A stretch of 64,000 bases of DNA from a phage. Below are positions 24,956 to 40,763 of this stretch, one piece after another. The stretch's first letter is position 1. Each line of letters begins with the position of its first letter. Position numbers and translations under genes: made by a program. Below the pieces are notes generated by a model. It did not search any database and was not told the origin of the DNA. It saw nothing but the letters and a program-made list of their open reading frames with translations. The stretch lies in the sequence record NC_135732.1; one strand, 5' to 3'.

Positions 24956-26005
24956 ATGAATTTAACACCTCGCAGCACCATGGTACACGGCATGAAAGAA
25001 AAACAGAACGGTTTCGAACCTATGAGTAATAAAATGTTTGGTATGCCGGGTGGTATTATGGAAACATACAGCTACCCAACACCTGTTGTTGACCACGTTC
25101 TTTATATCGACGATTTGGAGGACCTGCAGGATCATATGTCTCGTCTGCAGACGATCCGTATGGCTCAGCCGGAAGAAAGCATTCGTGTGATCATCAATAG
25201 CCCTGGGGGTTGCGTGCACATTGCAATGGCTTATCTACAGGCATTCCGCGAGTCTCAGGCAAGCGTTGTTGCACATGCTGAAGGGATGTGCTGCTCTGCT
25301 GGAACAATCCTATGGCTGGGTTGCAAAGAACGCACTGTGGCTCCGGACACAGAGTTTATGTTCCACTACTATCAAGGCGGCACTTATGGCAATGGTGTGA
25401 ACATGAATACTCAGGTCAGCTACTGGAAAAAACGTTTCGAACGCCTGATCGAAAAATACTACGGTTGGGTGCTGACAGAAGATGAGATCGCATCCATCAC
25501 AGCGGGTGGCGAAGTGTGGTTGGACGGAGAGGAGCTGGCAGCTCGAACTGGAGCTATCATTCTGGATGAAGGCAACATACAACGCATCCAGAACGGACAA
25601 AAACCTAAAAAGCTTTTGGCAAAAGGTGATGAAGAAGGTGTGCTAGGTGAAGCAGGTCTTCCGGAGATTCACCAGTGCACCTCTTTAGATGAGCTAGTTC
25701 ATGCTGTTGAATCTGCAAAAGCGGGTGGTTCGAAAGGTGATGTTCACACTGTGTTCCTGAACCTGCAGATGGAAAGTGGTGAGACCGTTAAGATTGCCTT
25801 AGGCGAGATTACCTCAGAAGATCTGCAGCGATTCTCTGTCGTTGAACTTCAAGACATTCTGTCCCAATTGAAGACAACCCTGAACGGCGGTGAAGAGGTT
25901 AAGGTAAAAGATAAGACTCGCAAGCGTCTGGTGGACAATATTATTAAAACAGCAAAAGAGCTCAATGAAAAAATCCTGGGTGCAGGAATTGTCGAAGAAG
26001 CTTAA
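24956..26005 (+). CDS. ClpP-like serine protease with C-terminal extension
   Basis: INSPGG motif, candidate nucleophile in GMCCSAG and His in FMFHYYQG; roughly 150-aa acidic C-terminal extension. Confidence 0.55.
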   Translation: MNLTPRSTMVHGMKEKQNGFEPMSNKMFGMPGGIMETYSYPTPVVDHVLYIDDLEDLQDHMSRLQTIRMAQPEESIRVIINSPGGCVHIAMAYLQAFRESQASVVAHAEGMCCSAGTILWLGCKERTVAPDTEFMFHYYQGGTYGNGVNMNTQVSYWKKRFERLIEKYYGWVLTEDEIASITAGGEVWLDGEELAARTGAIILDEGNIQRIQNGQKPKKLLAKGDEEGVLGEAGLPEIHQCTSLDELVHAVESAKAGGSKGDVHTVFLNLQMESGETVKIALGEITSEDLQRFSVVELQDILSQLKTTLNGGEEVKVKDKTRKRLVDNIIKTAKELNEKILGAGIVEEA

Positions 26006-26016
26006 ACATTAATTCT

Positions 26017-26040
26017 AAAGCCCTCTTCGGAGGGCTTTTA
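26017..26040 (+). terminator. rho-independent terminator
   Basis: AAGCCCTC-TTCG-GAGGGCTT hairpin then TTTA. Confidence 0.55.
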
Positions 26041-26056
26041 TGATCTGGAGATTTGC

Positions 26057-26590
26057 ATGACTTGTGCTCGAAAACCTGATGAACAACGTAACGCCTACGA
26101 TGAGTATGTGACACCGGAGTGGTGTGCAGAAGGGCTGTATGACCTTATTCCGTTCCCAGAAGACTGGACCTACTTAGAGCCTTGCAGGAATAGTGCCTCA
26201 GGTGTGTTCTACTCCCGTATGCCGTTAGGATCTGCATGGGGAGAAATCCAAGAAGGTGTTGACTATCTGAATACAGAATACAACCATGTTGACTGTATTA
26301 TCACCAACCCACCATACAGTTTGGCTCGTGAGTTTGTAGACAAGGCGTTGAAAGATGCTGACGTAGTTATTATGCTTTTGCGTCTTAATTTTCTGGAAAG
26401 CAAAGCCAGATTTGAATGGTGGCTTGATAATGCACCTACCACTGTGATCACAATATCTAAGCGTCCATCTTTTCAATCAAATGGCAGAACTGACGGGCAA
26501 GCATATGCATATTTTGTGTGGGATAAGAAAAACCGTTTAGGCTTGCCGCCATTTATGTGGTTGGCACCACCAGAGGTAGACCTGAAATGA
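26057..26590 (+). CDS. putative DNA methyltransferase (NPPY motif)
   Basis: DCIITNPPYS motif IV; small 177 aa. Confidence 0.45.
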   Translation: MTCARKPDEQRNAYDEYVTPEWCAEGLYDLIPFPEDWTYLEPCRNSASGVFYSRMPLGSAWGEIQEGVDYLNTEYNHVDCIITNPPYSLAREFVDKALKDADVVIMLLRLNFLESKARFEWWLDNAPTTVITISKRPSFQSNGRTDGQAYAYFVWDKKNRLGLPPFMWLAPPEVDLK

Positions 26591-26871
26591 AAATGAGTGC
26601 TAAGGACAAATTACACCAGTTAGCGCTAAAACGTCCTGTAACGCTCCCTGACGAGCTTAACTCCATTTATGATGCGATTGTAGGGGAGATACAAAATAAA
26701 GCGTTAGCAGGCTTTCTGGGGTGCGGATTTTCGATAAATCTACCCTCGCATCTCTCAGATTACTTCCCGCACATTGTTGGAGATTTAAGGGCAGGAGGTC
26801 TGCAGGTAGATGTTGTTGGCATCTCCCCAGAGAAAAATAATACGGTTGCCTACTTGACAGTAACCTGGTAG
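26587..26871 (+). CDS. hypothetical protein
   Basis: ATG overlaps upstream stop. Confidence 0.45.
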   Translation: MKMSAKDKLHQLALKRPVTLPDELNSIYDAIVGEIQNKALAGFLGCGFSINLPSHLSDYFPHIVGDLRAGGLQVDVVGISPEKNNTVAYLTVTW

Positions 26872-26907
26872 TTGTGTATTGTTGTTTTCAACAAGAGGGG
26901 GTCATTT

Positions 26908-27147
26908 ATGTACAAGTCATTTTCAATCTACTCAAGACAGGCGAAACACTACACAGAGATCCTGATCACTCAGAAAAAATCTGTGGAAGGTGAGTGGGAA
27001 TATCACCATAAAATGTTGCGTCCAGACTGGGTTTTTGATAGACTTATTGCTATGATCCCTCTCGGAGAAGTATACCCTCTGACAGCCCATCGCGATGCTT
27101 GGGATTTAATTGATTACATAGATTCATTTAAGGAGCCTAGATTATGA
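26908..27147 (+). CDS. hypothetical protein
   Basis: AGAGGGGG RBS then ATG. Confidence 0.45.
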   Translation: MYKSFSIYSRQAKHYTEILITQKKSVEGEWEYHHKMLRPDWVFDRLIAMIPLGEVYPLTAHRDAWDLIDYIDSFKEPRL

Positions 27148-27542
27148 AGATTGAGATTACTAAAGAAGGTAAGAAAGTGTCCGGCAACTATGCAACAGTA
27201 ATTCGGGATTTAATGTTTGAAGCCACCAAGATCGGTACATCTAAAGTTGGTCAAACTGTTAGTGTGAAAAGTAATATCGCCACAGGAGAGAAGGTATTCA
27301 TTGTGGTCAAAGGGCAGGATCCCGTGGAAGGAACAGTGGGCCGAGGTGGCTACCTGTGCATTTCTGAAGAGCCGCGTATGTTAGTGGCTGACGCTACTAT
27401 GGGTGGGAAACGTGTGTGCGAGGCGGATGAGGTAATGATTATCCAACCTGTTGATCCAGATGACCCAGCAACTTGGGTGGTAGGAAATGAAATCTTCTCT
27501 TTAGAAGAGTTATCCTTCCCAGCACCGCGCTCTGTTCAGTAA
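27144..27542 (+). CDS. hypothetical protein
   Basis: AAGGAG RBS. Confidence 0.5.
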   Translation: MKIEITKEGKKVSGNYATVIRDLMFEATKIGTSKVGQTVSVKSNIATGEKVFIVVKGQDPVEGTVGRGGYLCISEEPRMLVADATMGGKRVCEADEVMIIQPVDPDDPATWVVGNEIFSLEELSFPAPRSVQ

Positions 27543-27579
27543 TAATTTATCTTACCAGGGACGGTAGGTAGGAGGTAGC

Positions 27580-27813
27580 ATGAAAGTTAAATTTCTTACA
27601 GATTTAGGGTACCCTTCCTTGGTTGACTGTGTTGGTAAAATTGTGGAAGCAAAACGGCTATCTGCAAACGAGAATGTTGTCCTGGTTAAAGGGAAGGATT
27701 TACTAGCTGCAGGTGCAGAGTCTGGCAGGATCTCTCCTGATTATATGTATTACCTATCTTTAAGTAATCTGCCAGAGCGAGGCGGTAAAGGCCTTGAAGT
27801 TGTGGAGGAGTGA
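27580..27813 (+). CDS. small acidic protein, MKVK...VEIVEE paralog family
   Basis: AGGAGG RBS; KGKDLLAAGAESG and C-terminal LEVVEE shared with 31239 and 31453 ORFs. Confidence 0.55.
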   Translation: MKVKFLTDLGYPSLVDCVGKIVEAKRLSANENVVLVKGKDLLAAGAESGRISPDYMYYLSLSNLPERGGKGLEVVEE

Positions 27814-27818
27814 CAGGT

Positions 27819-28343
27819 ATGCTTCTGATTAACTGGGAAGACCTCTATGGGGACAAAGACCCTGTTGCGTTTGTTGATCGTAGGTGGAGATACACTGAAG
27901 AACAACTGGCGGCAAAAAATTTAACTGCAAAACGCAGAAAGATCATCCAGTGCAAGTACAAATACGCACAGTTTGCTGCAAAAGTGTCTCCACAAATCGA
28001 GAGCTTTGTGCTTAAATTGTATGACGAGTACCTCAAATTCAAATTGGATTTTGTGCAGGTGTACCGTGCACAGGTACGACCAGATACCAACATATGTAGA
28101 TGGGAGGTTGTTTGTGAAGGTAAAGATTTGCCGCTCAGCTTGACAATTGAGTGGCGTTATGGGTATCATGAGTGTGGTCTGTATGATATTTGGGATGTCA
28201 TTGTAGATCCTGCTAAGCATCTGAACACAGAGGAGCTGGAATATATCAATAAGGTTATTCTCGATATGTTTTTCAGCTACACACATGAAAACTCTGAGAA
28301 AGAACGGGATAATTTTCTTGACACCCTCAGCGACCATTTGTAG
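27819..28343 (+). CDS. hypothetical protein
   Basis: GGAGGAG RBS then ATG. Confidence 0.5.
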   Translation: MLLINWEDLYGDKDPVAFVDRRWRYTEEQLAAKNLTAKRRKIIQCKYKYAQFAAKVSPQIESFVLKLYDEYLKFKLDFVQVYRAQVRPDTNICRWEVVCEGKDLPLSLTIEWRYGYHECGLYDIWDVIVDPAKHLNTEELEYINKVILDMFFSYTHENSEKERDNFLDTLSDHL

Positions 28344-28373
28344 TATACAATTTAACCTACAAAGGGAGGACCA

Positions 28374-28601
28374 ATGAGTATAAATGTTGTGCTAATAGGT
28401 TACCTGGTAATGTCCGTTATAACAGCGGTATTCTTGACAGGTGTATGCATCGTGTCCAGACGAAGGGTGAAGTTTGATGATTTTATCACCATCATCACTG
28501 CTGCACCTTTTTGGCCTGTTGTTATCTTCATCGTAATAATGTGCCTAGTTGATTACTACAAGAATATCAGGAAGGAGAGTAGGGATGGAGACCGCACCTA
28601 A
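28374..28601 (+). CDS. small membrane protein (two hydrophobic segments)
   Basis: AGGGAGGA RBS; hydrophobic helices. Confidence 0.5.
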   Translation: MSINVVLIGYLVMSVITAVFLTGVCIVSRRRVKFDDFITIITAAPFWPVVIFIVIMCLVDYYKNIRKESRDGDRT

Positions 28602-28737
28602 AACTATCTATACTGTTCTTAAAGAGATTGCGTTCTACGCAGATCTTAGCCAGGCACCTTTATGGGAAAAGAGCATGTATTTAAAATGGTGCGTTAATTT
28701 AGGGAGACCTTCCAGTGTTTCAAGCCATGTTTATTGA
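28585..28737 (+). CDS. hypothetical small protein
   Basis: AAGGAGAG RBS then ATG; overlaps upstream gene. Confidence 0.35.
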   Translation: METAPKTIYTVLKEIAFYADLSQAPLWEKSMYLKWCVNLGRPSSVSSHVY

Positions 28738-28820
28738 GATGCTATCTGGGATATTGTTACTGGTAGCCATCTTAGGTGGTGCAGTTCTGATGTATAACTA
28801 TCTTGAAAAAGGAGACAGCA

Positions 28821-29006
28821 ATGGTAAAAAATAAATCTTTAGAGCAGGCTGAAAACCTTCTCCACGAGCTGGTAAAGGAGTGGAAAGTTGAATACTCAGA
28901 TTTTAATGCACGAGAGGGTGAAGATTATTGGCCTACGGAGCGCTCAGAGGGCGAATGGTATCAAGATTTTATAGAGTGGTTATATCAGACGTGCGATGAG
29001 GGGTGA
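28821..29006 (+). CDS. hypothetical small protein
   Basis: AAAGGAGA RBS then ATG. Confidence 0.45.
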   Translation: MVKNKSLEQAENLLHELVKEWKVEYSDFNAREGEDYWPTERSEGEWYQDFIEWLYQTCDEG

Positions 29007-29008
29007 CG

Positions 29009-29473
29009 ATGTTTGTTAAATATGTAAAAACGTGCCTCAACAGTCTTGGCAGAGAGCATTGGTACACCTTGCTTGAAAAAGGGGAAATTTTAACAAAATC
29101 TGGAAAGATAACTTTGATACCTCTTGATAGTAAAGGTAAAGACCCGTCACGACTTGTTATAGATGATTACGTTACAGGTGTGACGTTCGAGGTCTCTGTG
29201 GAGAGGTTAATACGCAGAGCTGGCGGCCCTTATGACCGAAGAGAGTATGTTTTCGATTCCGTTACAGAGATGGGGGAGCATCCGTCTTTAATGTTCAGGA
29301 TGGTAATCAGAGATATGAGGTCATCTATAGATAGGATCGTAAAGGACATTAAGGAACCTTTTAGAGTAAAAGTTAAGAAGTTTTTCGATTCTAAGATTAA
29401 CATACTCGCCGTTGCACTAGGTGTAGTTCAACTTCTGTTAATTTTGCACTATTTTGAACTACTATTTAAGTAG
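29009..29473 (+). CDS. hypothetical protein, C-terminal hydrophobic segment
   Basis: GAGGGG RBS then ATG. Confidence 0.5.
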   Translation: MFVKYVKTCLNSLGREHWYTLLEKGEILTKSGKITLIPLDSKGKDPSRLVIDDYVTGVTFEVSVERLIRRAGGPYDRREYVFDSVTEMGEHPSLMFRMVIRDMRSSIDRIVKDIKEPFRVKVKKFFDSKINILAVALGVVQLLLILHYFELLFK

Positions 29474-29535
29474 TAGTTGAGATATGGCACAAAGGATGTG
29501 CCATAGTGAAATAAACTAAGAAAGAGGTAGAGAGA

Positions 29536-29883
29536 ATGCCAAAGATTAAAACGTTATTACTGTGGGTAGCTGTTTTAGCTTTTATAGGGTACTGGACTTG
29601 GGAAACTGAATTAAAAGATATCGGATATACCAGTCTTGAGAGCAAGGCGTGCATTGGCATAACCGATGCGTTCAGGCAAAATGCTCTGGATCACGAATGT
29701 GTTGATGCAGATATAGATGAGAAACTGTCTAAGGACAAAGATTTTTACCATGGGCATGCTTTACTTGATAGTGGTGACACTGTAGAGTTCTGGTCGTGGT
29801 TTCGTGAAGATGGAACAATAAAAACAGCAGTAAAGATCTCTAACAAAGAGTTAATGCTGTTGCAGCAAAAGGAGGCTCAATGA
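29536..29883 (+). CDS. hypothetical protein, N-terminal membrane anchor
   Basis: RBS; N-terminal LLLWVAVLAFIGYW. Confidence 0.5.
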   Translation: MPKIKTLLLWVAVLAFIGYWTWETELKDIGYTSLESKACIGITDAFRQNALDHECVDADIDEKLSKDKDFYHGHALLDSGDTVEFWSWFREDGTIKTAVKISNKELMLLQQKEAQ

Positions 29884-30167
29884 TCTGGATATCCTATGCT
29901 GATGGCACCATGCTGTATACTGCAGGTACCAGATATGAAGTTCAGGAGAACGATAAAAAATTTATCGTAAAAACATTTGACAAGGACGACAACCTTTTGC
30001 TAGAATTGACTTACAAAGTTGGAGAGGTATCCAATATCCAGTTGGATTGTGGTCATAAAGATAATCCACTCAAAAAACCTGGAGTAGGTAAGGCTTCAGA
30101 AGAACGTCTGTCTCGTATTGCAGAAAGCGTTTCTCCCCAAAAATCTAAGAAGAGGACTAGAAAATGA
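29880..30167 (+). CDS. hypothetical protein
   Basis: AAGGAGG RBS. Confidence 0.5.
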   Translation: MIWISYADGTMLYTAGTRYEVQENDKKFIVKTFDKDDNLLLELTYKVGEVSNIQLDCGHKDNPLKKPGVGKASEERLSRIAESVSPQKSKKRTRK

Positions 30168-30358
30168 AAAACTTACGTTTTAACACTTATTACTACAACA
30201 CATTGAATGATTTGTATTATATTGTTCGAAGTAAAAGTCCTGAAACAGTCCTATTCTGCCGCGAACCTTTCAAAGGGGAGGAAGTAGAGTCTGAGATGAA
30301 TGTTAGCCAGATCACCTCTTTGTTGCTCTCAGGCGCAATGGAAGAAGCAATATTCTAA
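30164..30358 (+). CDS. hypothetical small protein
   Basis: AGAGGA RBS. Confidence 0.45.
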   Translation: MKNLRFNTYYYNTLNDLYYIVRSKSPETVLFCREPFKGEEVESEMNVSQITSLLLSGAMEEAIF

Positions 30359-30377
30359 ACCGGGCGGGAGGGTTTTT

Positions 30378-30563
30378 ATGAAGCACTATTGTCTGTCTGG
30401 TAGAATGGGTGCAGATTGTGATTGGGTTTTCTTAAAACTTGTCAGTATTCGAGAGTTCATCCCAGAGGAAGAGCAAGAAAGTGAGCTGATGTCATGGATC
30501 AACCATTACGGTAACACTTTTCGGCATGTTAAGGTAGAAGAGTTGCCAGGCGAGGCTGATTGA
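30378..30563 (+). CDS. hypothetical small protein
   Basis: GGGAGGG RBS then ATG. Confidence 0.45.
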   Translation: MKHYCLSGRMGADCDWVFLKLVSIREFIPEEEQESELMSWINHYGNTFRHVKVEELPGEAD

Positions 30564-30658
30564 CTATGATTGCATCAATATTAACGTTTATGGGTGGCGT
30601 GTCATTCGGATTCATTGTTTGCCTATTTATAGTGATTATGTCTATGCGGGGCTGAATT

Positions 30659-30955
30659 ATGAAACTTTTTGAGTGGTTTAAAAAGTTTAAATATAAAGCT
30701 GTAGCCATCGTGCCGTGGTCAATTCAGTGGGTTGATGAAGGTGGTCTACCGATACCTGGTGACAAAGATACTGGGTACTGGATTATGATGGAGAACGGGT
30801 TTGGAAAGCGAAAGTATACGTGCACAAACTCTACTCGATCTGCACTTAATAGAGTGCCTGGTTATAAACTTATGGTTGTGTGGAAAATGTCAGGCGTGCC
30901 TCCAGCCAATGCTCAATTTCTTACTGACAATCCGACCACGGTAGAGGGAGATTGA
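30659..30955 (+). CDS. hypothetical protein
   Basis: ORF with ATG start. Confidence 0.45.
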   Translation: MKLFEWFKKFKYKAVAIVPWSIQWVDEGGLPIPGDKDTGYWIMMENGFGKRKYTCTNSTRSALNRVPGYKLMVVWKMSGVPPANAQFLTDNPTTVEGD

Positions 30956-30957
30956 TA

Positions 30958-31239
30958 ATGAAAAAGATTAACAGTAGTGAAGTAGAGTTTAAACTTGTCG
31001 GAAAAGGCACTTACTGGGAAGTTCGTCAAAAGGTATATTTGTTCGGTCTTATTCCCTACTGGTCTAAATTCTACTGGGGAGCTAACGAGTGGGGAAGATA
31101 CGCCACCAAATCAATGGCACTTGTTGGTATAGCAGAGTACATTGCAGCCCGAGATAGGGTTGGAACCACTTATTACTACACTGCTGACGATATTCGTAAC
31201 AGTGTTTACGTCCCACAACCGCCTGAGGGAGACCGTTGA
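30958..31239 (+). CDS. hypothetical protein
   Basis: GAGGGAG RBS then ATG; track start was TTG. Confidence 0.5.
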   Translation: MKKINSSEVEFKLVGKGTYWEVRQKVYLFGLIPYWSKFYWGANEWGRYATKSMALVGIAEYIAARDRVGTTYYYTADDIRNSVYVPQPPEGDR

Positions 31240-31463
31240 TGAAAGTTAAAGTTTTAGATTCAAGCTTCTATATTGGTCAGGAGCCCTTAGTGGGGAAAGT
31301 GTTTACCGCTATCCCTAACGAAGATTATCCTGACCTTTTAAAAATAAAAGGTGCAGATCTTATTGCCGCTGGTGCATCTCAGGACTGCTTTGACAGCCAG
31401 TGGACCTACAACTTTGCCCTTGGTGAGGATGTAGAGATAGTGGAGGACGAGAATGAAGGTTAA
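31239..31463 (+). CDS. small acidic protein, MKVK...VEIVEE paralog family
   Basis: GAGGGAGA RBS; KGADLIAAGASQD and DVEIVEDE tail. Confidence 0.55.
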   Translation: MKVKVLDSSFYIGQEPLVGKVFTAIPNEDYPDLLKIKGADLIAAGASQDCFDSQWTYNFALGEDVEIVEDENEG

Positions 31464-31707
31464 AATTCTTGATTCTAACGTCTACTTGGGACAATCCTTC
31501 CTGAAGGGAAAGGTTGTACCTGCGGTGTACTTTGAATGGTTGCCTGACAACGATCCTGTGCGTCAGAAGCATTCCACTGTATCACACGGTGTGGTATTTA
31601 TTCGCGGGTTAGATCTGATCAAAGCGGGTGTCCCCAAGTATTACTTTGGGGAAGAACATTACTATGCCTTCGGTGTAGGAACAGACGTAGAGATTGTAGA
31701 GCGGTAG
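31453..31707 (+). CDS. small acidic protein, MKVK...VEIVEE paralog family
   Basis: GGAGGA RBS; MKVKILDSNVYLGQ and DVEIVER tail. Confidence 0.55.
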   Translation: MKVKILDSNVYLGQSFLKGKVVPAVYFEWLPDNDPVRQKHSTVSHGVVFIRGLDLIKAGVPKYYFGEEHYYAFGVGTDVEIVER

Positions 31708-31708
31708 T

Positions 31709-32107
31709 ATGAAGAACAAGCTTTTCAAAGTAACAATGAAAATTCGCGGAGCTTGGAGCGTAAAGCAAGGGCGTATTCCGGAATTTGAGAAAGACTTCTA
31801 CGTAGTCTCCACCTCGGAGGAGGCTGCATGCTGGCAGGCTGGCTATGCCTATGCAAGAACCTGGTACGAAGGATACCAGACTGGGGGCTATGACGGAGAA
31901 ATTATCAGCAAGGGTGTAGAAGAAATTAATGTGTTGACAAGTGAAAAAGTTTTTGTTATAGTGCATCCAGATTCCAGAGTGAAGCATTACTGGAATGCCA
32001 GAACAAAAACTTGGACACCGTTTGCAGATTCTGCTACGCCACTTTTAAACCAGAAAGCTCTTGACTCTGCCCCAAGTTATGGGGTTGTTGAAGAAAAGCT
32101 AAACTGA
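31709..32107 (+). CDS. hypothetical protein (paralog of 33919 ORF)
   Basis: VIVHPDSRVKHYWNARTKTWTPF resembles VMRHPHSNIAYYWDVLNNEWTPDL in 33919 ORF. Confidence 0.5.
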   Translation: MKNKLFKVTMKIRGAWSVKQGRIPEFEKDFYVVSTSEEAACWQAGYAYARTWYEGYQTGGYDGEIISKGVEEINVLTSEKVFVIVHPDSRVKHYWNARTKTWTPFADSATPLLNQKALDSAPSYGVVEEKLN

Positions 32108-32124
32108 AACAGTGAGGTGTCACC

Positions 32125-32415
32125 ATGATGGATTTAATTCTAAATATTGATAACGCAGAAGAGTTTAAAGACGATGGTGTAACAAGCATGGACAAACCCT
32201 GCTCTGCTAAGGTTGACTCAAAATGGACCTACAAGTTTGACGGAGAGATCTTCGCAAATGATGAGAAGGTTGTAGATGCTGCAGCCATTTTAAACGCTCT
32301 AGGGTACGACCCTGTGAATTCTTTGATCAAGGATCCTGTTGAGTTTGCAGAGTATGTTCGAAAAATGGCAGATCTTGCTGTGGATATTTTAAAAACTATC
32401 GACAACAAGCTGTAA
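32125..32415 (+). CDS. hypothetical protein
   Basis: GTGAGGTG RBS. Confidence 0.5.
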   Translation: MMDLILNIDNAEEFKDDGVTSMDKPCSAKVDSKWTYKFDGEIFANDEKVVDAAAILNALGYDPVNSLIKDPVEFAEYVRKMADLAVDILKTIDNKL

Positions 32416-32421
32416 AAACTG

Positions 32422-32450
32422 TTGACACAACGCTTCAGATTTAGTATCAT
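32422..32450 (+). promoter_or_regulatory. sigma70-like promoter
   Basis: TTGACA, 17-nt spacer, TATCAT. Confidence 0.5.
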
Positions 32451-32499
32451 TGTTTTCAAAGAGAGATAGTTATTCCCTCTTCCTTAAAAGGAACACGTT

Positions 32500-32820
32500 A
32501 TGCAAATTGAAATCACTGGCAACAATGTAGAAATCACAGAAGGTATGGTATCTTTTATTTCCCGCAAAATGTCCAAGCTGGAGCGTTTACATCCCTCTGT
32601 TAACTATGCACGTGTGAGTGTAAAAGTTGAAAATGATCACCAGGAAGTTATGGCGTTCATTTTTGACAATTCTGGAAAAGAAGTTATTGCCAAGGCTAAA
32701 GGCAGTGATGCTTACGAGGCAACTGACCGTATGGTAGATGTTGCAGCACGTCAGCTGGCTAAATGCGGTGGAAAGAAAGGTAAGGGGAAAGGCAAAGTAA
32801 AGATTGACTTTGGAGAATGA
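32500..32820 (+). CDS. hpf: ribosome hibernation promoting factor homolog (HPF/RaiA family)
   Basis: MQIEITGNNVEITEGM...VSVKVEN...ARQLAK matches E. coli HPF as recalled; AAAGGAAC RBS. Confidence 0.7.
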   Translation: MQIEITGNNVEITEGMVSFISRKMSKLERLHPSVNYARVSVKVENDHQEVMAFIFDNSGKEVIAKAKGSDAYEATDRMVDVAARQLAKCGGKKGKGKGKVKIDFGE

Positions 32821-32957
32821 GGTGCTACAATGGGTGTGATTAAGAAATTAGTCCCAAATGTAGAGATTGCATGCTTTGAAATTATGTTTGCAATCGCAGT
32901 TGTAGTTAATGTGTTAGGTTACGGCTATTAATATCAAATAATTGAGGAGACCTCTAA

Positions 32958-33227
32958 ATGAAAATTAAATTATTCAAAACTGAGCTGGCAGACAAAAATT
33001 GTGGTCTGGTTGAAGGCATGATTGTTGAAGCACAACCAGTGGACTATATGAAGGTGGTTCGTGATGCCCTGGGTGAAGGTTTTGATCTGATGGAGCCAGC
33101 TCTGCGAGAAGATGTTATCGAGATGGCTAAAAAGCACACACCTGAGGGTTTGGTGGTGTTTGTTGCACCTGGTAATGGAGAAGAGTTGATTGTAACTCCT
33201 GATGTGTATGAGATTGTAGAGGAATAA
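32958..33227 (+). CDS. small acidic protein (VEIVEE-tail family)
   Basis: GAGGAGA RBS; C-terminal DVYEIVEE. Confidence 0.5.
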   Translation: MKIKLFKTELADKNCGLVEGMIVEAQPVDYMKVVRDALGEGFDLMEPALREDVIEMAKKHTPEGLVVFVAPGNGEELIVTPDVYEIVEE

Positions 33228-33318
33228 TCCTGCTTGGATTAGCATACTTCCTCGCTAAGGAAGATTTGTAATTATTTGTGGGAAAGGAATCCCAATATCT
33301 TACCAGAGGTGATATTAT

Positions 33319-33582
33319 ATGATTGTTTATTTTAAAACTTCAGGTGGATACCCTGATTCTCAAAGCTTGATCGGAAAAACGTGCACAGCATACTCACCTC
33401 TTGATGAGGAGGTAAGTGATATTCTACGAAATATGTATCGGATTGACCCCCAAGAAGCTTTTGATCAAAACCTTGTATTTGTCAAGGGCTCAGACATGAA
33501 GTCTTTGGGAGCATTCCCTGAAGCAGATGATGATGCCGTTTATTCGTTCATGACTCCTTTTGAAGCTATGGTTGTTGGGTGA
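33319..33582 (+). CDS. small acidic protein (family-like)
   Basis: GAGGTGA RBS; LVFVKGSDMKSLGAF resembles family core. Confidence 0.5.
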   Translation: MIVYFKTSGGYPDSQSLIGKTCTAYSPLDEEVSDILRNMYRIDPQEAFDQNLVFVKGSDMKSLGAFPEADDDAVYSFMTPFEAMVVG

Positions 33583-33586
33583 TAAT

Positions 33587-33919
33587 ATGAAAGTACGCTT
33601 TATTGGTGAAACAATTCCTGTGCATCTCCGGTCTCCTGAGGATTCTGCAGATCTTGCATCTCAAAAGGCGAGAGGTTATGATAAGAAAGTAACCTCAACC
33701 GATGTAGTGCTTGAGGCTACTAGTCTACCTGACCCTGCTGCATTCTTTAATCATTATGGGTACTATTTCAGCAATCTGATGAATATCGGTGAGCTTGTGT
33801 TTATTAGTGGTGGAGAAATTGTTAGCAAGCTTGGCGGAGATCCGGATGTCTTTCATGAAACCTGTCCTTTTGCATTTGTGGTGGGTTCAGATGTGGAAGT
33901 TATTGAGGAGGTGCGGTAA
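33587..33919 (+). CDS. small acidic protein (VEIVEE-tail family)
   Basis: ATG 33587 (MKVRFIG); C-terminal DVEVIEEVR. Confidence 0.5.
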   Translation: MKVRFIGETIPVHLRSPEDSADLASQKARGYDKKVTSTDVVLEATSLPDPAAFFNHYGYYFSNLMNIGELVFISGGEIVSKLGGDPDVFHETCPFAFVVGSDVEVIEEVR

Positions 33920-34314
33920 TGGTAAGCCTATACCGTGTTGAGTATAGCTCAGATACTGTATACAACGTAAGAAGCAAAGATCGCAGCGACAGAGTGCAAG
34001 AAATGTACGTTCTTGCCGACAGTCCGTTATCTGCAGCGTTCAAGGCAGGGGCTCTTGCATCTCGTTGGAAATTTGAAGGTGGATCTTTCTATGAAGAAAC
34101 CCTTGAAGATTCTGTTGTTATTTCTTCTGTAGAGGTTTCAGATGACTACGAAGGGAAAAAGTTCGTAATGCGGCACCCACACAGCAATATTGCGTACTAC
34201 TGGGATGTTCTGAACAACGAGTGGACCCCAGATCTTCAGAAGGCTACTGTGCTAACACCGTTTTTGGCAGATAAGTTCCCACCAGAAGGTAATTTATCTG
34301 CACTGTTTCAGTAA
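33919..34314 (+). CDS. hypothetical protein (paralog of 31709 ORF)
   Basis: GAGGAGG RBS; shared HP..YW...WTP motif. Confidence 0.5.
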   Translation: MVSLYRVEYSSDTVYNVRSKDRSDRVQEMYVLADSPLSAAFKAGALASRWKFEGGSFYEETLEDSVVISSVEVSDDYEGKKFVMRHPHSNIAYYWDVLNNEWTPDLQKATVLTPFLADKFPPEGNLSALFQ

Positions 34315-34393
34315 TTTTCTTGCACACAGGTGTTGACAACGCCAACCCTGTGTGAAATAATACCTTCATCTTAACAAGACAGGAGACCGATTG

Positions 34394-34651
34394 ATGAAGA
34401 TTAAATTGAAAAACCTTGAAACGGCAGAGATTCAGGACGGTGTTGATTTCCGTTCTAAAGATGGTGACATCTTAGAGGTAAATATTCCAACCTACGAGCT
34501 GATCAAAGGTTTTGGCAACGTCCCCGAGGAAGGTATCGCAGACGTTCTTCTAATGTTAATCGTTAGTGGGACAGTGTTCTTGGGTGAAGGTGAGAACGCT
34601 ATTGCAATCCCAAGCCATTTTTATGAAGTAGTTGACGAAGAGGTGCTGTAA
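34394..34651 (+). CDS. small acidic protein (VEIVEE-tail family)
   Basis: ATG after TTG; C-terminal FYEVVDEEVL. Confidence 0.5.
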   Translation: MKIKLKNLETAEIQDGVDFRSKDGDILEVNIPTYELIKGFGNVPEEGIADVLLMLIVSGTVFLGEGENAIAIPSHFYEVVDEEVL

Positions 34652-35002
34652 ATGAAAGTAGAAATTACTGGTTTTGATGTGAATGTGGTTCCGGAAGATA
34701 TTTTAGCTAAACTCCCGGAAGGTTTTGGTAACGGTGTTGTGGTGGATGCTGTTCCTCCTACCAAAGACATTCTGCTGCAGTATGGTGTAGCAGAGGAAGA
34801 TGTCGATAAAGTTCTTACAATGATGGCAATCGATCGTGTTGTCGTTGTTAAAGGTCTCGATAATTTTGAGAGTGATCCCCTGATTATTCGTGGAGATGAC
34901 TATAAAATCATCGATAATGAAGGCCAAGAGTTCTATGAGCCTTGTGCAGAAGATATTCTTAGCTTATTACTGGAAGCAGGTACCGAAGAGGAGGACGAAT
35001 AA
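34652..35002 (+). CDS. small acidic protein
   Basis: GAGGTG RBS; MKVEITGFDV. Confidence 0.5.
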   Translation: MKVEITGFDVNVVPEDILAKLPEGFGNGVVVDAVPPTKDILLQYGVAEEDVDKVLTMMAIDRVVVVKGLDNFESDPLIIRGDDYKIIDNEGQEFYEPCAEDILSLLLEAGTEEEDE

Positions 35003-35331
35003 TGAAGATTGACCCGTTACTGAAGGCTCGTGCAGAAAAAGCGTACACCATTAAGCTGACCAACCTGGTTCCTACTTGTCATCCAGATGTAGGTTGGCCT
35101 GAAGGTCTGGTAGAGGGGACTGTAACAGCTGCATACCTCCCTAACATCAAATACCTTATGGAAATCTTGGAGCTGGATGAGGAAACGGCAGAAGAGTTCC
35201 AGTTGGACATGAAACAAAGTGGGACTCTGGTTATTCACGGGTGGTATAATACTAAAGACGCAGAAGACCCTCTTGTAACTTCTAATCTGGCATATGAAAT
35301 CTTAGGACCTTTGAACCTGGGGGAAGACTAA
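35002..35331 (+). CDS. hypothetical acidic protein
   Basis: GAGGAGGA RBS. Confidence 0.5.
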   Translation: MKIDPLLKARAEKAYTIKLTNLVPTCHPDVGWPEGLVEGTVTAAYLPNIKYLMEILELDEETAEEFQLDMKQSGTLVIHGWYNTKDAEDPLVTSNLAYEILGPLNLGED

Positions 35332-35618
35332 TGAAAGATCTGGTTAAGATTAAGATTAAAGATACCAACGGCGAACTCAGCCATTTTGGAATTAATGATG
35401 GTGACGAGCTGATCGCACACCTGCCTACCAAGGAAGTTGTAAGCAAAGCAGTTGCCGGAGAAGAAGATGCAATGCAGGCTGCAGGTGTGGATGAAAACTA
35501 TGTAGCCATGTGCATGTGCCGAGACCAGGTTGTTCTGTATAAAGCGTATCGACCAAACGGAGCCACGGAGTGGCTTGTATTCCGACCCGAAGGATATGAA
35601 ATCTTAGAGGCACTATGA
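35331..35618 (+). CDS. hypothetical acidic protein
   Basis: GGGGGAAG RBS. Confidence 0.5.
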   Translation: MKDLVKIKIKDTNGELSHFGINDGDELIAHLPTKEVVSKAVAGEEDAMQAAGVDENYVAMCMCRDQVVLYKAYRPNGATEWLVFRPEGYEILEAL

Positions 35619-35707
35619 TAAATCTTGCCAAGGTTGCAACGGTACTGTTAATTATTTGCTGGTCAGTAACCTTAACACTGTGTCTTGTATTTCAGTAAGG
35701 TGCTTAT

Positions 35708-35971
35708 ATGAACATCCTGATGTGGGTTGTAGCAGTGGCGTTTGTTGCATGTTTTTGCTGCTGGGTTGCGGTGAGGATTTCTGTAGCTACCCTTCGGAAG
35801 TTGGGGTTCTCAGAGTGGGATATTAATATCCTTTCTTTTCGCAATGAAACAATCTCAGCCGCCCTGCTCTGTAAGAAATTCAAGTGGGAACCTTGCGAGG
35901 TCATGAACTATCTAAGAACGGGAGATATCCCTGAAAGATTTAAAAAAGTTCTTGACGACAAGGATAAATGA
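35708..35971 (+). CDS. small membrane protein
   Basis: AAGGTG RBS; N-terminal hydrophobic helix. Confidence 0.45.
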   Translation: MNILMWVVAVAFVACFCCWVAVRISVATLRKLGFSEWDINILSFRNETISAALLCKKFKWEPCEVMNYLRTGDIPERFKKVLDDKDK

Positions 35972-36126
35972 TAGTATAGTGACTAACAAGAGGTGAGGAA
36001 TGACTGATTTTACTGAAGCTTTAATGATGGCCTTGTCTGTTTTAGCGCTATCGGTGTGTTTTGGGGCGTTATTCACATCTCTGGTTAAAGTTTTACATAC
36101 AGTATTATTACCCAAGGAGCGCAGTA

Positions 36127-36378
36127 ATGACGAAGATTGACTTGAATGCTGGCGATCATGTTGTTGTCAAATGCATTGGAGATTATCTTGGATTCACAAT
36201 CGGCAATACTTACGAGGCGGTAGTGGCGAAGGTTTACTATGATAAAGTCCTCAGTCTTGTATTTGACTGCGATGATGATGGGGATGACCGATACGTCTGT
36301 GAGGTGCTGGCACGAGACGATAGTGAAGACCAGAAATTCCTGGTTATTGAACTGAACGGTATTTTTGTAGAACGTTAA
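36127..36378 (+). CDS. hypothetical small protein
   Basis: AAGGAG RBS then ATG 36127; track ORF started upstream. Confidence 0.45.
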   Translation: MTKIDLNAGDHVVVKCIGDYLGFTIGNTYEAVVAKVYYDKVLSLVFDCDDDGDDRYVCEVLARDDSEDQKFLVIELNGIFVER

Positions 36379-36406
36379 TTTAAAACAACATAAGGAGACT
36401 CTTACT

Positions 36407-36712
36407 ATGGCTAAATCTAAAGTTGAACTGTTCACCTCTCTTCCTTCTGACACTGCAGAGCGTGATCGCCTTCGCAAAACAATCGAAGAACTGGTAGAAC
36501 TCCAACTTCAGATTAAAGATCTGAAAGATGCCATTAAGGATATCATTCTCGTTGAGAAGCAGGATCACCTGTATTCTCCTAAATTCATCAAATCTCTGGT
36601 GGCTACCGAGTTCGATATTCGCTATGAGGCTGAAAAACGTCGCGCTAAAATCGAAGAAGAGGTTGAGCACATGTCTGAGGCAGACATTCTGTTCAAACGC
36701 TCTGTAGAATAA
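36407..36712 (+). CDS. hypothetical protein (charged, helical)
   Basis: AAGGAGA RBS. Confidence 0.5.
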   Translation: MAKSKVELFTSLPSDTAERDRLRKTIEELVELQLQIKDLKDAIKDIILVEKQDHLYSPKFIKSLVATEFDIRYEAEKRRAKIEEEVEHMSEADILFKRSVE

Positions 36713-36718
36713 TGACAA

Positions 36719-36746
36719 AGAGGGGGGCTTGGGCCCCTCTTTTTTC
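36719..36746 (+). terminator. rho-independent terminator
   Basis: GAGGGGGG-CTTG-GGCCCCTC hairpin then TTTTTTC. Confidence 0.7.
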
Positions 36747-36767
36747 TATCTATGAAGGAGATTTGAG

Positions 36768-37094
36768 ATGGGTATACCGATTACTGTAAAAGAGCTAAAT
36801 GAACGTGATGCAGGTGGTCTATGGCCTGCACGAAAAATCCGCTGCGTCTATATGAAAGAGAATCTTGAACATCTTGATCAACAGATAAAGGTCGGCGATA
36901 TTTTCGAGGTCTTCTATTCCAATCGTCGCAACTGGGAAACCATTCAACCTTCCGGTTTTGTTCTTGCTAAGCTCGACACTGGAGAAGTGATTATCCCAGG
37001 GTTGGATATTGTCTTCGAAATTATCCAGGAGTGGGATCCGGATAAGATTAGATACGAAGAGTTATTCGGTAAAGGTATTATCAAACCTGTGTGA
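36768..37094 (+). CDS. hypothetical protein
   Basis: GAAGGAGA RBS. Confidence 0.5.
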   Translation: MGIPITVKELNERDAGGLWPARKIRCVYMKENLEHLDQQIKVGDIFEVFYSNRRNWETIQPSGFVLAKLDTGEVIIPGLDIVFEIIQEWDPDKIRYEELFGKGIIKPV

Positions 37095-37402
37095 GGTGGA
37101 TTATGTCTACAAAGGCGGCTAAATACTCTTACATGCCATCAACCTCTGCAGAGGTAGACTTTAGTTTCGATGTGTTTCCACTGTTTGAGGTGGTTCTGGC
37201 ATACCCAACAATACTATCTACTCCTGAATCACTTGTGCCTGTTAAATTGCAGAACGCTATGCATTCTATGCACTACAACAATAAATGTAGGCACAGATGG
37301 TGTCAGGACGAGGAAAAAGATTTAGATAGTTTGAGAGATTTTGACAGTCACCTTTTGACACCTTTCAGCTACTCCAACCTTGATAAGCCCTCATGGGTAT
37401 AG
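37091..37402 (+). CDS. hypothetical protein
   Basis: GAGGTGGA RBS. Confidence 0.45.
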   Translation: MRWIMSTKAAKYSYMPSTSAEVDFSFDVFPLFEVVLAYPTILSTPESLVPVKLQNAMHSMHYNNKCRHRWCQDEEKDLDSLRDFDSHLLTPFSYSNLDKPSWV

Positions 37403-37427
37403 CAAAATATCAAATTTAAGACACCTA

Positions 37428-37455
37428 GGACGCTCTGTGGCGTCCTTTTCTTTAT
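37428..37455 (+). terminator. rho-independent terminator
   Basis: AGGACGC-TCTGTG-GCGTCCT hairpin then TTTCTTT. Confidence 0.7.
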
Positions 37456-37615
37456 CTGGTGCACGATTGCATACCTTGGACAGATAATCTCATTACAGAG
37501 CGTTTAAGAGCTTCCTACAAACAAATCTCTCTTTCGAGCGTAGCGAGAACGCACGTCCGTTTTGACCCAAATCACCATACGCTCGGATTTTAACCAAACC
37601 CTCGCGGCGTTTCTG

Positions 37616-37644
37616 TTGACACATTACCGCTCTCGTGATAGTAT
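37616..37644 (+). promoter_or_regulatory. sigma70-like promoter
   Basis: TTGACA, 17-nt spacer, TAGTAT. Confidence 0.5.
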
Positions 37645-37664
37645 CCACACATCGTTTGGAGAAT

Positions 37665-37766
37665 ATGGAATACACAATGAGAACATTGTCTGAAGTTTTA
37701 GTGGTGATCCTGATGATCATTACATCCATAGCGGCTGTTGCCGGAATACTCACAGGTGGAACATGA
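37665..37766 (+). CDS. small hydrophobic peptide (33 aa)
   Basis: GGAG RBS; MEYTMRTLSEVLVVILMIITSIAAVAGILTGGT; stop overlaps next ATG; below track cut-off. Confidence 0.35.
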   Translation: MEYTMRTLSEVLVVILMIITSIAAVAGILTGGT

Positions 37767-37978
37767 TCAACACACATGCATCTGAAGAGACATCCGAAGG
37801 AGTGACGACCATATGTAACCTGGCTGAGCCAGTGAAAGAGGAAAACTTCGATTCTGAAGATTCTCCATCTTCGCTCCAGGTAGACCCTGAGGCTGATGAC
37901 CTGACGTGGGAGGACATCGTAGACATCTGGTTCTCTATTATGCCTGAGCACGAAGAGTTCAGAGGTGGTAGACTATGA
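37763..37978 (+). CDS. small acidic protein
   Basis: GGTGGA RBS; ATG overlapping upstream stop. Confidence 0.45.
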   Translation: MINTHASEETSEGVTTICNLAEPVKEENFDSEDSPSSLQVDPEADDLTWEDIVDIWFSIMPEHEEFRGGRL

Positions 37979-38098
37979 AGCACCGAGCCCACACAGGTTC
38001 CTCATGCTAAAGCATGACCTGAAGAGGCAAACGTGCATAATTCCTGTGCATTGAAACGTATAAACCCTGTTCACACTCTCATTCACAGAGGAGATTTC

Positions 38099-38314
38099 AT
38101 GAAGATAGAAATATTTGGTGGGGCTGACAACACTCGTGGCCTGATTTACCTTGAATTCGATGAATCATACCTGCCAGAGGTGTTAAATATAGACTCTGTT
38201 GCTGAGGCTTTGGGAGTAAACCCTAAAGAACTCCACTCTTGTGCTGAGATCGATGGTTGGGAAGAGACCATGAACATTGATTTCAGTGAAGTAGAGGATG
38301 AACCGCTGGACTGA
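38099..38314 (+). CDS. small acidic protein (MKIEI family-like)
   Basis: AGGAGA RBS then ATG 38099; track ORF started upstream. Confidence 0.5.
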   Translation: MKIEIFGGADNTRGLIYLEFDESYLPEVLNIDSVAEALGVNPKELHSCAEIDGWEETMNIDFSEVEDEPLD

Positions 38315-38443
38315 CACACAATTAGCTGCCCGGCTAAAGTGCTGGAAGCGCACCTATAACACATATTTCAACTAAATTTCCCACCACCACAATCACTTAC
38401 CTACCACACGTGACTGTTTGCTTGTTTAGTGAGCAGTCATGCC

Positions 38444-38471
38444 TTGACATTCTTGCCTATCCTGATAAAAT
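38444..38471 (+). promoter_or_regulatory. sigma70-like promoter firing into non-coding region
   Basis: TTGACA, 16-nt spacer, TAAAAT; no credible ORF downstream. Confidence 0.4.
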
Positions 38472-39791
38472 TAAGTTCTTCTCTTTTCTTTTACCGAGTA
38501 ATTCGGGTTTTCTGTTCTCTTCGGTTTGAAGGGGTATGGAGATACACCTGAGTGAACAGGGTGAACAACCGAACCATTAGCTATGGCATTAGCATGGCGA
38601 AGCGGACGGGTGACGAAAGAGGGGCCGGAGGACACCAGTCACTGCCATATGATATATGGGTGATAACCTGAAGAGTCTGAATAAGTGTTTAAGTACCAGT
38701 CAGAGGAAAAGGTGAATGGTAGCCGAAGGGGGAGGGGGGGTTTCTTGTATCTTTAATTTGTATATTATGTATACACTTGTAAACCAATTTCATATGAATC
38801 TGTTTACCACACAAAGTGGATTGAGACAAATATTACCTATTAAACTTGAATTATTTATAGAAAATACCACAACACACCTTAAGTCTTTGATTTTACACAT
38901 AAATCTTACAGATATTCAACCTCCATATTTAACATACTTGTAACATATCCTATACCACACCTGCCTGATCAATTCCCCCAACTACATCCTCTATATTTTC
39001 CCTGTCTGTACTACCCCATCCCCGCCGGGAGTCCCGTCATATCTGGCTTTCCAGCAAATATCACACCCACAAATATCATTGCCTGAAGAGGGTTTCATCC
39101 TCTAATACCTGCCTTACCTGAAGAGCGCTTCATACACCACGTAAATTTTTTAATTGACCTGCAATTTTCCCGTCATGACCCCCTGCCCCGCCGGAGAGGT
39201 TGGCTTTTCCCACACAGACCTGAAGAGTCAGCCAGAAATATCTGAACAGGCCCAATTCTACCACGATTTTGACCTGACCTACAGGAGTGCTGCCAGGCGG
39301 ACGAAATGGGAATACTTCTCATTCTTATAATAATTCTCAAATATCGAGGCAGTGAAGCAAATTAATAGGTGAGGCCGTTCACATAGTGGCACAACATTTG
39401 CAATCTATTTTGTGTGGGGGAATGAGAATACCTATCATTGTGAGAACTGTTATCATTACGGGCAATTTAACATAATACCCATTATGCGCACCACTGGCGA
39501 TACATACAGGGATTGATAACATGAGTTACTGTTTACGCATATAACAATTATATTTATTACTATTTGTGTGGGATATAGTTAGCAGCCGATAGATTAGATA
39601 TTGACCTGCGGACTTCTGACCGTCTAGACGTCTAAACGCCCACACAGCAAGAGTTATACATACATCGCTGAATGTAAACAGGGCCGCAAAAATGCTACCA
39701 TACCAGTTTGTAAATTTTTCATGCAGCACTTGACAAAGAGGAGAAAAACTTGTCTGACATAATGTGACCTAACTGACACAACATGACACTT

Positions 39792-39875
39792 TTACACACC
39801 TATTAGTTTACACACTGGATTGTTTACATTCCTGATTGTTCACATGCTAACCATTTACATGATTGACTGTTTACA
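39792..39875. repeat. iteron-like array of TTTACA(C/T)A motifs
   Basis: Six copies at about 15-16 bp spacing (39792, 39807, 39823, 39838 variant, 39854, 39870). Confidence 0.6.
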
Positions 39876-39888
39876 CACCGATAATCAG

Positions 39889-40138
39889 CCATGCCATTCG
39901 TTTGCATGACAATAATTATACATGACAATAATCGCACTGATTATAATTAGCATGACATAATATAAAAGCAGGGCAACTATTAGCAGATCTATAGTTGCCT
40001 TGCTTGTTATGTCATGATTAACTAAATACAAGGCAACTATGATCTGATTAATAGTTTGCAGACAAACTATCACGGGGGTGATGGTTACTGCTTTTATATT
40101 ATGTCGCGACTCCGTCGCGCCATGCCATTCGTTTGCAT
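39889..40138. repeat. symmetric element: 18-bp direct repeats flanking inverted repeats
   Basis: CATGCCATTCGTTTGCAT at 39890 and 40121; inverted arms 39950-39971 and 40089-40111; internal hairpin 39971-39998. Confidence 0.6.
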
Positions 40139-40763
40139 AGTTGCCTTATTGTTACAGATAAAATAATTGTATTGTTAATTATTTCTTATCTTTCTATTAG
40201 TCATCTAATGATTTCAGTTAATATAGTAACGTACAGTAAACATTAGACGACTAAAGATTTCTCTGCTTATGGTAACCTAACGTGACAATTCCAGACTGTT
40301 TACGAAAAATGTTGACACCTGGGCCGATTTATGTTATGCAGTTTACACGAATAATTATTTTATGCAGGTATTGACTATTCCGTTATTCTACGGTTGGAAT
40401 AAATGCTTAGCAGGCTATAGAATGGCGAGCGTACGTAAATTCTGAGATCTGGCGGCTATAGTTATACTCGATTTTTCACGTAGAAAACGCTTTTGTAGTT
40501 ATGTAAGTGTATGACTTATAAGAATTTTTAGTTGTTGACAAGCTATTGAAGATATGCATCAGGTTAAATTTTGTGCAAATGCTGCATTACGTGCAATTTT
40601 GGAAGGAAAAACGTGTAAAAATGGCCCTGCTACCACACAATGAAAAATTATGCAATAGTTATTTTATATGTATGTTTGTACAGTGGGGTTAATTGCTGGC
40701 TTGTTGATTATTCCATTTGCCAGGCGGGGCCATTTGTGGTAGGAAAAGAGGAGACAAAAAGAA

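Follow-up and report, generated by a model that had tools for sequence, protein, structure and literature searches.

Arrays of early accessory genes are known from large lytic phages and include the early open reading frames (ORFs) of T4, T5's pre-early genes, the host-takeover module of SPO1, and the anti-CRISPR loci. Here, we describe a gene array at positions 27144–38314 of a 64,000-nucleotide (nt) stretch of phage DNA (sequence record NC_135732.1), which was analyzed at its full length and is called “the window” below. The source phage is an rV5-like Vequintavirus. The array resembles the known systems in that its genes are small, mostly acidic, packed on the same strand, dispensable, variable, and mostly ORFans, with host-type promoters. 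It differs from them in that about ten of its genes appear to be built on one scaffold and would hence be paralogs rather than unrelated ORFans, and it differs from anti-CRISPR loci in that no regulatory partner like the Aca proteins was recognized. We propose that the array contains two lineage-expanded families, A and B, with five genes each, both encoding putative five-stranded SH3-like barrels, and a duplicated gene, C, that follows pairs of A genes. Small-gene expansions are a familiar pattern in phages, and the array is a clean example of a common phenomenon.

An earlier note on this DNA had described 8–12 adjacent ORFs as a single family with a common N-terminal start, an internal core, and an acidic C-terminal tail, and had likened it to arrays of host-takeover or anti-defence proteins, a likeness that we retain as an analogy. 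Motifs were scanned in the 218 ATG-initiated ORFs of at least 50 amino acids (aa) in all six frames of the window; genes are named below by their first position. The N-terminal pattern M(M)K[VI][KER][IFVLP] occurred in nine of the 218 ORFs, all on the + strand at 27144–38314, and the core pattern in four (27580, 31239, 31453, and 33319), which are precisely the ORFs for which it had been claimed. Ten ORFs had the C-terminal pattern, eight of them in the region, and the six that combined the N- and C-terminal patterns were precisely the six for which the tail had been described. The motifs therefore occur where they had been reported, far from chance, and the N-terminal and core patterns are confined to the region among the 218 ORFs. 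A single family of 8–12 was not demonstrable; profile tests gave two families of five each. Nor are all members adjacent, as 12 unrelated genes lie between 27580 and 31239 and a ribosome hibernation factor gene lies within the array. The description “acidic” suits most members (isoelectric point [pI] 4.05–4.7) but not 31453 (pI 6.8) or 27580 (pI 5.4), and acidity does not discriminate members, because most genes of the region are acidic.

The predicted membership of family A is as follows.

27580–27813, + strand: family A, 77 aa, solitary copy (PHROG 5009, E 8e-36; leave-one-out E 3.5e-6; AlphaFold predicted local distance difference test [pLDDT] 95.1)
31239–31463, + strand: family A, 74 aa, opening an A-A-C triplet (PHROG 5009, E 4e-37; leave-one-out E 1e-15)
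31453–31707, + strand: family A, 84 aa (PHROG 5009, E 4e-27; leave-one-out E 1e-12)
33319–33582, + strand: family A, 87 aa, carrying an insert that follows strand 2 (rank 1 when left out, E 4e-4; deep profile E 5e-18)
33587–33919, + strand: family A, 110 aa, containing two inserts (rank 1 when left out, E 3.6e-5; deep profile E 5e-15)

When the 37 proteins of the region were compared all-against-all with blastp, 31239 and 31453 shared 42% identity over 83 aa (E 2e-15), and matches were also found between 27580 and 31239 (E 2.5e-6), 31453 and 33587 (E 4e-4), and 27580 and 33319 (E 0.005). In leave-one-out tests, a hidden Markov model (HMM) profile built from the remaining members was searched against 737 six-frame ORFs, and every left-out member of family A ranked first of the 737, with E values from 1e-15 to 4e-4. 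A family profile of 65 sequences found the five window ORFs at E 2e-31 to 5e-15 and no other window ORF below E 2. When ortholog-enriched profiles were compared using hhalign, seven A pairs scored 78–99.5%; 33587 scored 93.5% against 31453, and 33319, the first gene of the second A-A-C triplet, which matches PHROG 5009 weakly, scored 88% against 27580. The five-gene membership predicted by these comparisons is robust. The family core, which consists of G-x-(D/E)-L-(I/L)-x-x-G-A following strand 3 and of Y-x-F within strand 4, is degenerate in 33587, and 31453 overlaps the preceding gene 31239 by 11 nt and carries a loop insert after strand 2. Positions M1, Y11, G38, L41, G45, Y57, and F59 were near-invariant in 31 diverse members and are probably core or turn residues.

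Searches of Pfam, NCBIfam, and the PDB sequences with all members and 31 distant relatives found no relative, in line with the earlier view that no function can be assigned from sequence; the A profile reached at best E 0.11 among 177,635 PDB sequences, with an unrelated protein. In a HMMER search of 1.84 billion representative proteins, 37 clusters matched at E<=1e-3, mostly of 63–87 aa, and all 31 scanned diverse relatives matched PHROG 5009, so that family A appears to be a small one carried by phages. In two relatives, a single chain contains two or three copies of the domain. The nearest named entity to family A is PHROG 5009 (with 13367, 13920, and 13661), a set of phage families with no assigned function; in PHROGs, the window paralogs are split over several families that carry neither a function nor a fold.

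Two larger genes each follow a pair of A genes.

31709–32107, + strand: family C paralog, 132 aa, after the first A-A pair (PHROG 7379, E 4e-74)
33919–34314, + strand: family C paralog, 131 aa, after the second A-A pair (PHROG 7379, E 2e-66)

Judged by their sequences, these are true paralogs, as had been proposed earlier: they match the same PHROG, share 28% identity over 112 aa (blastp E 8.5e-8), and score 96.9% with hhalign. The order A-A-C is thus found twice (31239-31453-31709 and 33319-33587-33919), which suggests segmental duplication of a three-gene unit; we put this no more strongly because the pairwise hhalign scores among the A genes fail to pair the two units clearly. A relationship of 33919 to E2 ubiquitin-conjugating enzymes was considered and rejected, as the phmmer matches (E 0.4–0.8) were gone with a five-sequence family profile. 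Those weak matches centred on a stretch, HP.S..YW..WTP, that is conserved in both C paralogs.

The putative family B comprises one gene upstream of the second triplet and four contiguous genes downstream of it.

32958–33227, + strand: family B, 89 aa (leave-one-out with B, E 3.4e-5, rank 1; AlphaFold pLDDT 93.8)
34394–34651, + strand: family B, 85 aa, opening a run of four contiguous B genes (hhalign with 34652, 68% over 82 columns)
34652–35002, + strand: family B, 116 aa, extended at the C-terminus by an acidic stretch (rank 1 when left out, E 7e-3)
35002–35331, + strand: family B, 109 aa, with the weakest support in B (hhalign to 34652, 72% over 66 columns)
35331–35618, + strand: family B, 95 aa (rank 1 when left out, E 1.2e-3; hhalign with 32958, 44%, and with 34652, 24%)

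We regard these five as a family with moderate confidence. The leave-one-out result was significant for three of the five members (32958, 35331, and 34652). For 34394, a combined A+B profile gave E 3e-3 at rank 1 and B alone gave rank 4, and 35002 was borderline (rank 2–3, E 0.14–1). Simple pairwise blastp scores are weak within B, and each member falls in its own single-lineage PHROG. A divergent metagenomic relative (L011) retains orthologs of the B genes at 29–57% identity, and of the whole array at 29–86%, and its ortholog of 34652 also finds 35002 by blastp (E 8e-4). With the L011 orthologs added, each of the top 11 of 666 hhalign profile pairs joined two members of A, of B, or of C; the B pairs scored 72%, 68%, 44%, 24%, 18%, 17%, and 16%, against at most 28% for any unrelated pair. 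The B profile reached at best E 0.77 among the 177,635 PDB sequences, again with an unrelated protein, and sequence searches for B outside Vequintavirus-type contigs found none, the sole outside link being a Foldseek match in Vibrio phage Vc1. All-against-all and HMM–HMM comparison, the check proposed in the earlier note, therefore recovered families A and C clearly and B moderately, and left 27144, 38099, and 36127 outside.

The two families are predicted to share a fold. The AlphaFold2 model of 27580, from an alignment of 22 sequences, has pLDDT 95.1 and a predicted template modeling score (pTM) of 0.82, with strands at residues 2–5, 21–27, 30–37, 56–60, and 72–76 and a short helix at 38–43 that bears the conserved core motif. 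The model of 32958 (pLDDT 93.8) has strands at 2–5, 22–27, 66–69, 76–79, and 84–88, and three helices (30–60) between strands 2 and 3, at the site of the inserts in 31453, 33319, and 33587 of family A. The five strands follow the same order in both models, so that a shared fold, for which the earlier note had suggested structure prediction, is indicated by one model per family; for the core set, the alignments were significant and the predicted folds agreed. Both proteins are predicted to be five-stranded SH3-like barrels, and the closest fold in the models is an SH3/KOW barrel, with KOW matches no better than SH3 matches. The second Foldseek match of the 27580 model was an 87-aa protein of Shigella phage CM1, which, from its length and organism, we take to be the ortholog of 33319; among predicted viral structures, the 32958 model matched a 95-aa protein of the rV5-like phage ECP32 (E 2.4e-3), presumably, on the same grounds, the ortholog of 35331. 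The match lists of the two models overlap, the shared matches of 32958 being weaker. When the helical insert was excised, the B profile aligned with the A profile at 80% (hhalign E 1.4e-5, 76 columns), in register across strand 1, the G-x-V-V-E-A strand 2, strand 3, and the C-terminal E-I-V-E-E strand, and only 1 of 200 column shuffles reached this score. In an excision-grid control across 24 small gene groups, B members took ranks 1–3, at 37%, 23%, and 6%. A common origin of A and B is probable, though short of established, because the excision test was designed after the models had been seen.

Comparison with related phages indicated that these genes are both constrained and mobile in number. 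The region shows 98.6% full-length identity to Escherichia phage magaca, and nearly all of the 122 phage records that match it are rV5-like Vequintavirus. In a comparison with three close relatives, the ratio of nonsynonymous to synonymous polymorphism (pN/pS) was 0.13 for family A, 0.13 for family B, and 0.07 for the other array genes; families A and B are real genes under purifying selection. Synonymous divergence in the B block is about three times that of other genes, and the 31453 allele of phage Murica has 78% DNA identity within a region that is otherwise about 98% identical; together, these indicate allele exchange. In phage Bas59 (EduardKellenberger), a 3.8-kb deletion (window positions ~28216–32022) has removed 31239 and 31453 and left the 5′ part of 27819 fused with the final 86 nt, at the 3′ end, of the 31709 ortholog. 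Bas59 grows on Escherichia coli K-12 without two A genes and one C gene, and these genes are dispensable on that host. The resulting fusion coding sequence (CDS; L007, 12240–12707) is annotated “putative glycosidase,” a name that is doubtful because the CDS is a deletion fusion of the 27819 and 31709 orthologs.

In a 133-kb Vequintavirus contig (L013), one gene of 70 aa takes the place of both 31239 and 31453. The first 135 nt of this hybrid are 90–100% identical to 31239 and the last 75 nt are 96–100% identical to Murica-type 31453, with the junction inside the conserved core GxDLIxAGA, indicating that tandem paralogs had undergone unequal crossover. A frameshift divides 31453 in the L011 lineage, which also lacks 31709, and the Seunavirus relatives LNA4 and EspYZU15 have no family member at the corresponding loci. 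The families are still turning over by unequal crossover, deletion, and frameshift decay. The repeated duplication and divergence of a small gene that had been proposed earlier is thus supported by the hybrid gene, the frameshifted copy, and the 3.8-kb deletion, and the suggested copy-number comparison gave a range from 0 (Seunavirus) to 5 copies among related phages.

Family A is also found in unrelated surroundings. Lambdoid prophages carry a single family A gene between the Q antiterminator and holin genes, in 13 of 5,426 complete E. coli genomes. A 42-kb phage has two copies, one of them within the replication module between Prim-Pol and AAA_24 genes, and in Vibrio phage CHOED a tandem pair follows DNA polymerase I and an HNH ORF. 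There (L008, 5557–6216), the annotated HNH ORF continues, with no stop codon, into a family A gene with a GGAG and an ATG of its own, and the second family A gene comes directly after it (6206–6409); this arrangement would be either a fusion or a lost stop codon beside a homing endonuclease. The common denominator across these contexts is a small accessory gene among small genes and not a fixed functional module.

Small genes form a long rightward block of which the region itself is the distal part. The + strand carries all genes between about 24.9 kb and 38.3 kb, and the coding strand switches near 38.4 kb, at the peak of the cumulative GC skew. Gene starts often overlap the preceding stop, and a Shine-Dalgarno sequence precedes every gene; the RefSeq record of Murica likewise annotates a ribosome-binding site before each gene, and almost all genes here are labelled “hypothetical protein.” Candidate promoters were predicted as matches to a σ70-like consensus, of which there were 52 between 24 and 41 kb, compared with 38.6 ± 5.3 in shuffled sequences. 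The + strand holds 14 of the 15 best matches, and several sit in the few intergenic gaps, including the following.

32422–32450, + strand: σ70-like promoter match TTGACA-17-TATCAT (11/12 consensus), in the gap before the HPF gene
34333–34361, + strand: σ70-like promoter match TTGACA-17-AATAAT with TG (11/12 consensus), in the gap before the four-gene B block

Early transcription by the host polymerase is plausible from these predicted sites. The rV5 genome paper also states that host-type promoters occur across the genome; it describes this part as a run of 88 mainly small ORFs beside a 2.6-kb ORF-free stretch and leaves paralogs or duplications unmentioned (PMC3606486). A literature search found no paper describing these paralogs.

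Taken together, tandem duplication, and probably also segmental duplication (A-A-C), gave rise to the families, and we propose one ancestral barrel gene behind A and B. The genes would be transcribed early by the host RNA polymerase from σ70-like promoters, and their products would act as stoichiometric protein-binding modules with a conserved barrel core and variable loops and surfaces, each paralog binding and modulating a different host factor or defence component. Such a host-binding accessory role is suggested by the conserved core or turn residues, the variable loop lengths, the acidity, and the tandem domains within a chain. Several points weigh against this proposal. With the insert kept, hhalign of A against B gives 7%, so that the link between the families depends on a post hoc excision; 35002 and 35331 showed no signal against profile A in the excision grid; and the models cover one member per family, 27580 for A and 32958 for B. 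A pN/pS of 0.13 indicates constraint and not positive selection, and so lends no support to an arms-race role. Early expression is read from the consensus promoter matches (52 against 38.6 ± 5.3), and the Pfam, NCBIfam, and PDB searches offered no homolog of known function. On balance, we consider that early accessory proteins binding host proteins or defence components have about an even chance of being the correct description.

A bolder form of the proposal, in which A and B would be one scaffold-based family of at least ten genes plus the co-duplicated C, forming a birth-and-death repertoire of inhibitors of host factors or defences that gains new specificities by unequal crossover, seems rather unlikely; if true, it would give phages an equivalent of the multigene families by which host range is set in large eukaryotic DNA viruses. 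In either form, about ten “hypothetical” genes would collapse into one or two structural families. The rV5-like phages, a group in wide use, serve in biocontrol and in O157 typing and are represented in the BASEL collection, and the array provides a testable candidate set for which natural variants (the deletion, the hybrid gene, and the frameshifted copy) already exist for comparison. If the paralogs inhibit distinct host or defence proteins, they would be an example of a small scaffold diversifying by duplication and recombination.

Among other explanations, the proteins might serve the phage itself, in assembly, as scaffolding or virion-associated proteins, or as replication accessories, with no host factor targeted. 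The location of family A inside replication modules (beside Prim-Pol and AAA_24 in the 42-kb phage and DNA polymerase I in CHOED) would fit such a role, as would the annotation of the neighboring gene 29009 as “virion structural protein” in Murica. In contrast, the growth of Bas59 on K-12 minus two A genes and one C gene, the copy number of 0 (Seunavirus) to 5 among related phages, and the accessory slot between Q and the lysis genes that is occupied by the lambdoid copy all argue against a phage-internal role, which we regard as improbable. Moreover, apart from gp133, which was left unmapped, this gene set includes none of the virion proteins named in the rV5 paper's main text (PMC3606486).

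The array also contains genes with possible roles in gene expression. At 32500–32820 (+), in the middle of the array, lies a homolog of the ribosome hibernation factor HPF/RaiA (PF02482 score 56.7 bits, cutoff 23.7), which starts with MQIEIT and in this resembles several array genes. The gene at 36407–36712 (+) matches PHROG 639, “transcriptional regulator” (E 1e-21), shows the top conservation in the array (86% identity to the divergent L011 lineage), and is followed by a strong bidirectional terminator-like hairpin at 36717–36742. In the phage magaca record (and, according to its note, APCEc02), 32958 is labelled “sigma 54 modulation factor” (L009, 5815–6084). This assignment was rejected: 32958 has no Pfam match at E<=1, PF02482 included, and its predicted fold differs. 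The HPF fold has the order beta-alpha-beta-beta-beta-alpha, unlike the two strands, three helices, and three strands of the 32958 model, and the label looks like a propagated annotation error.

It is conceivable that the families are nucleic-acid-binding KOW- or Sm-like barrels that regulate translation or transcription together with the HPF homolog and the putative regulator at 36407–36712. Direct binding of RNA or DNA is unlikely, however, because most members are strongly acidic, with net charges of −7 to −21. The “sigma 54 modulation factor” label, which would have linked 32958 to HPF, lacks Pfam support and disagrees with the predicted fold, KOW matches do not exceed SH3 matches, and elsewhere the family occurs in unrelated contexts that have no HPF gene. 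This explanation is quite improbable, and a protein-binding role is preferred.

The duplicates might instead be selfish or decaying, with little current function, and kept because insertions are tolerated in the region, which has homing endonucleases nearby. One copy is indeed frameshifted, one gene is a hybrid, and deletions exist; some relatives have annotated HNH endonuclease genes in this region, and the CHOED HNH ORF continues directly into a family A gene. Nevertheless, the pN/pS of 0.13 among close relatives, the orthologs kept at 29–74% identity in the divergent L011 lineage, the confident folded models, and the conserved Shine-Dalgarno sites and tight gene packing make decay very improbable. 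Lastly, the least credible explanation, that the shared motifs are coincidental or compositional (strand-forming termini such as MKIKL and an acidic C-terminus, with no common ancestry), does hold for 27144, 38099, and 36127, in which only the first 5–7 residues are common, and draws on the weak spurious matches that the MQIEIT start of the HPF gene also yields and on the modest individual hhalign values within B (15–72%), but it is already refuted for families A and C and is opposed by the significance of family A by every method, the restriction of the motifs to the region among the 218 ORFs, the placement of the top 11 of 666 profile pairs in the proposed families, and the confident models with the same strand order for both families.

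The three genes 27144, 38099, and 36127 were tried as members of the families and rejected, as they share the N-terminal MK-I-E-I strand only and were recovered by no profile; against every other small gene of the window, profile A scored at most 7% with hhalign, the aligned part being the first 6–9 residues. The gene at 27144–27542 (+) encodes 132 aa beginning with MKIEIT; it has no Pfam match and aligns at 18% (hhalign, 64 columns) with the first 75 residues of the HPF homolog.

Among the records matching the region, 18 are named “Campylobacter phage,” and 16 of these have Campylobacter jejuni as the host. Two such records among the matches listed have ~98% identity to the E. coli phage region, and these records are probably mislabelled or contaminating rV5-like coliphages.

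Beyond the array, at ~38400–41000, the window is almost free of ORFs; this stretch corresponds to the “non-coding” block of rV5 and lies at the strand switch and GC-skew maximum. It contains a repeat cluster at ~39880–40160, comprising a perfect direct repeat of 20 nt whose copies are 231 nt apart, a perfect inverted repeat of 18 nt, and repeats that contain GCAACTAT. An Rfam scan of 26000–41500 gave no match. The stretch may be an origin or a regulatory region.

Further small paralogs were observed on the − strand. The adjacent genes 51348–51680 and 51684–51938 (hhalign 95.7%, E 1e-8) share the motifs AF(K/R)DCT and DD(E/Q)GD and are separate from families A and B; 51684–51938 had given an early leave-one-out signal as a B member and was rejected when the enriched B profile produced no match at E<=1. 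Three adjacent beta-rich small ORFs (52397–52591, 52588–52815, and 52812–53186) have a similar “G..Y.V ... D..G..W(F)” pattern and may be another small paralog group; hhalign of 52397–52591 against 52588–52815 gave just 28.5%.

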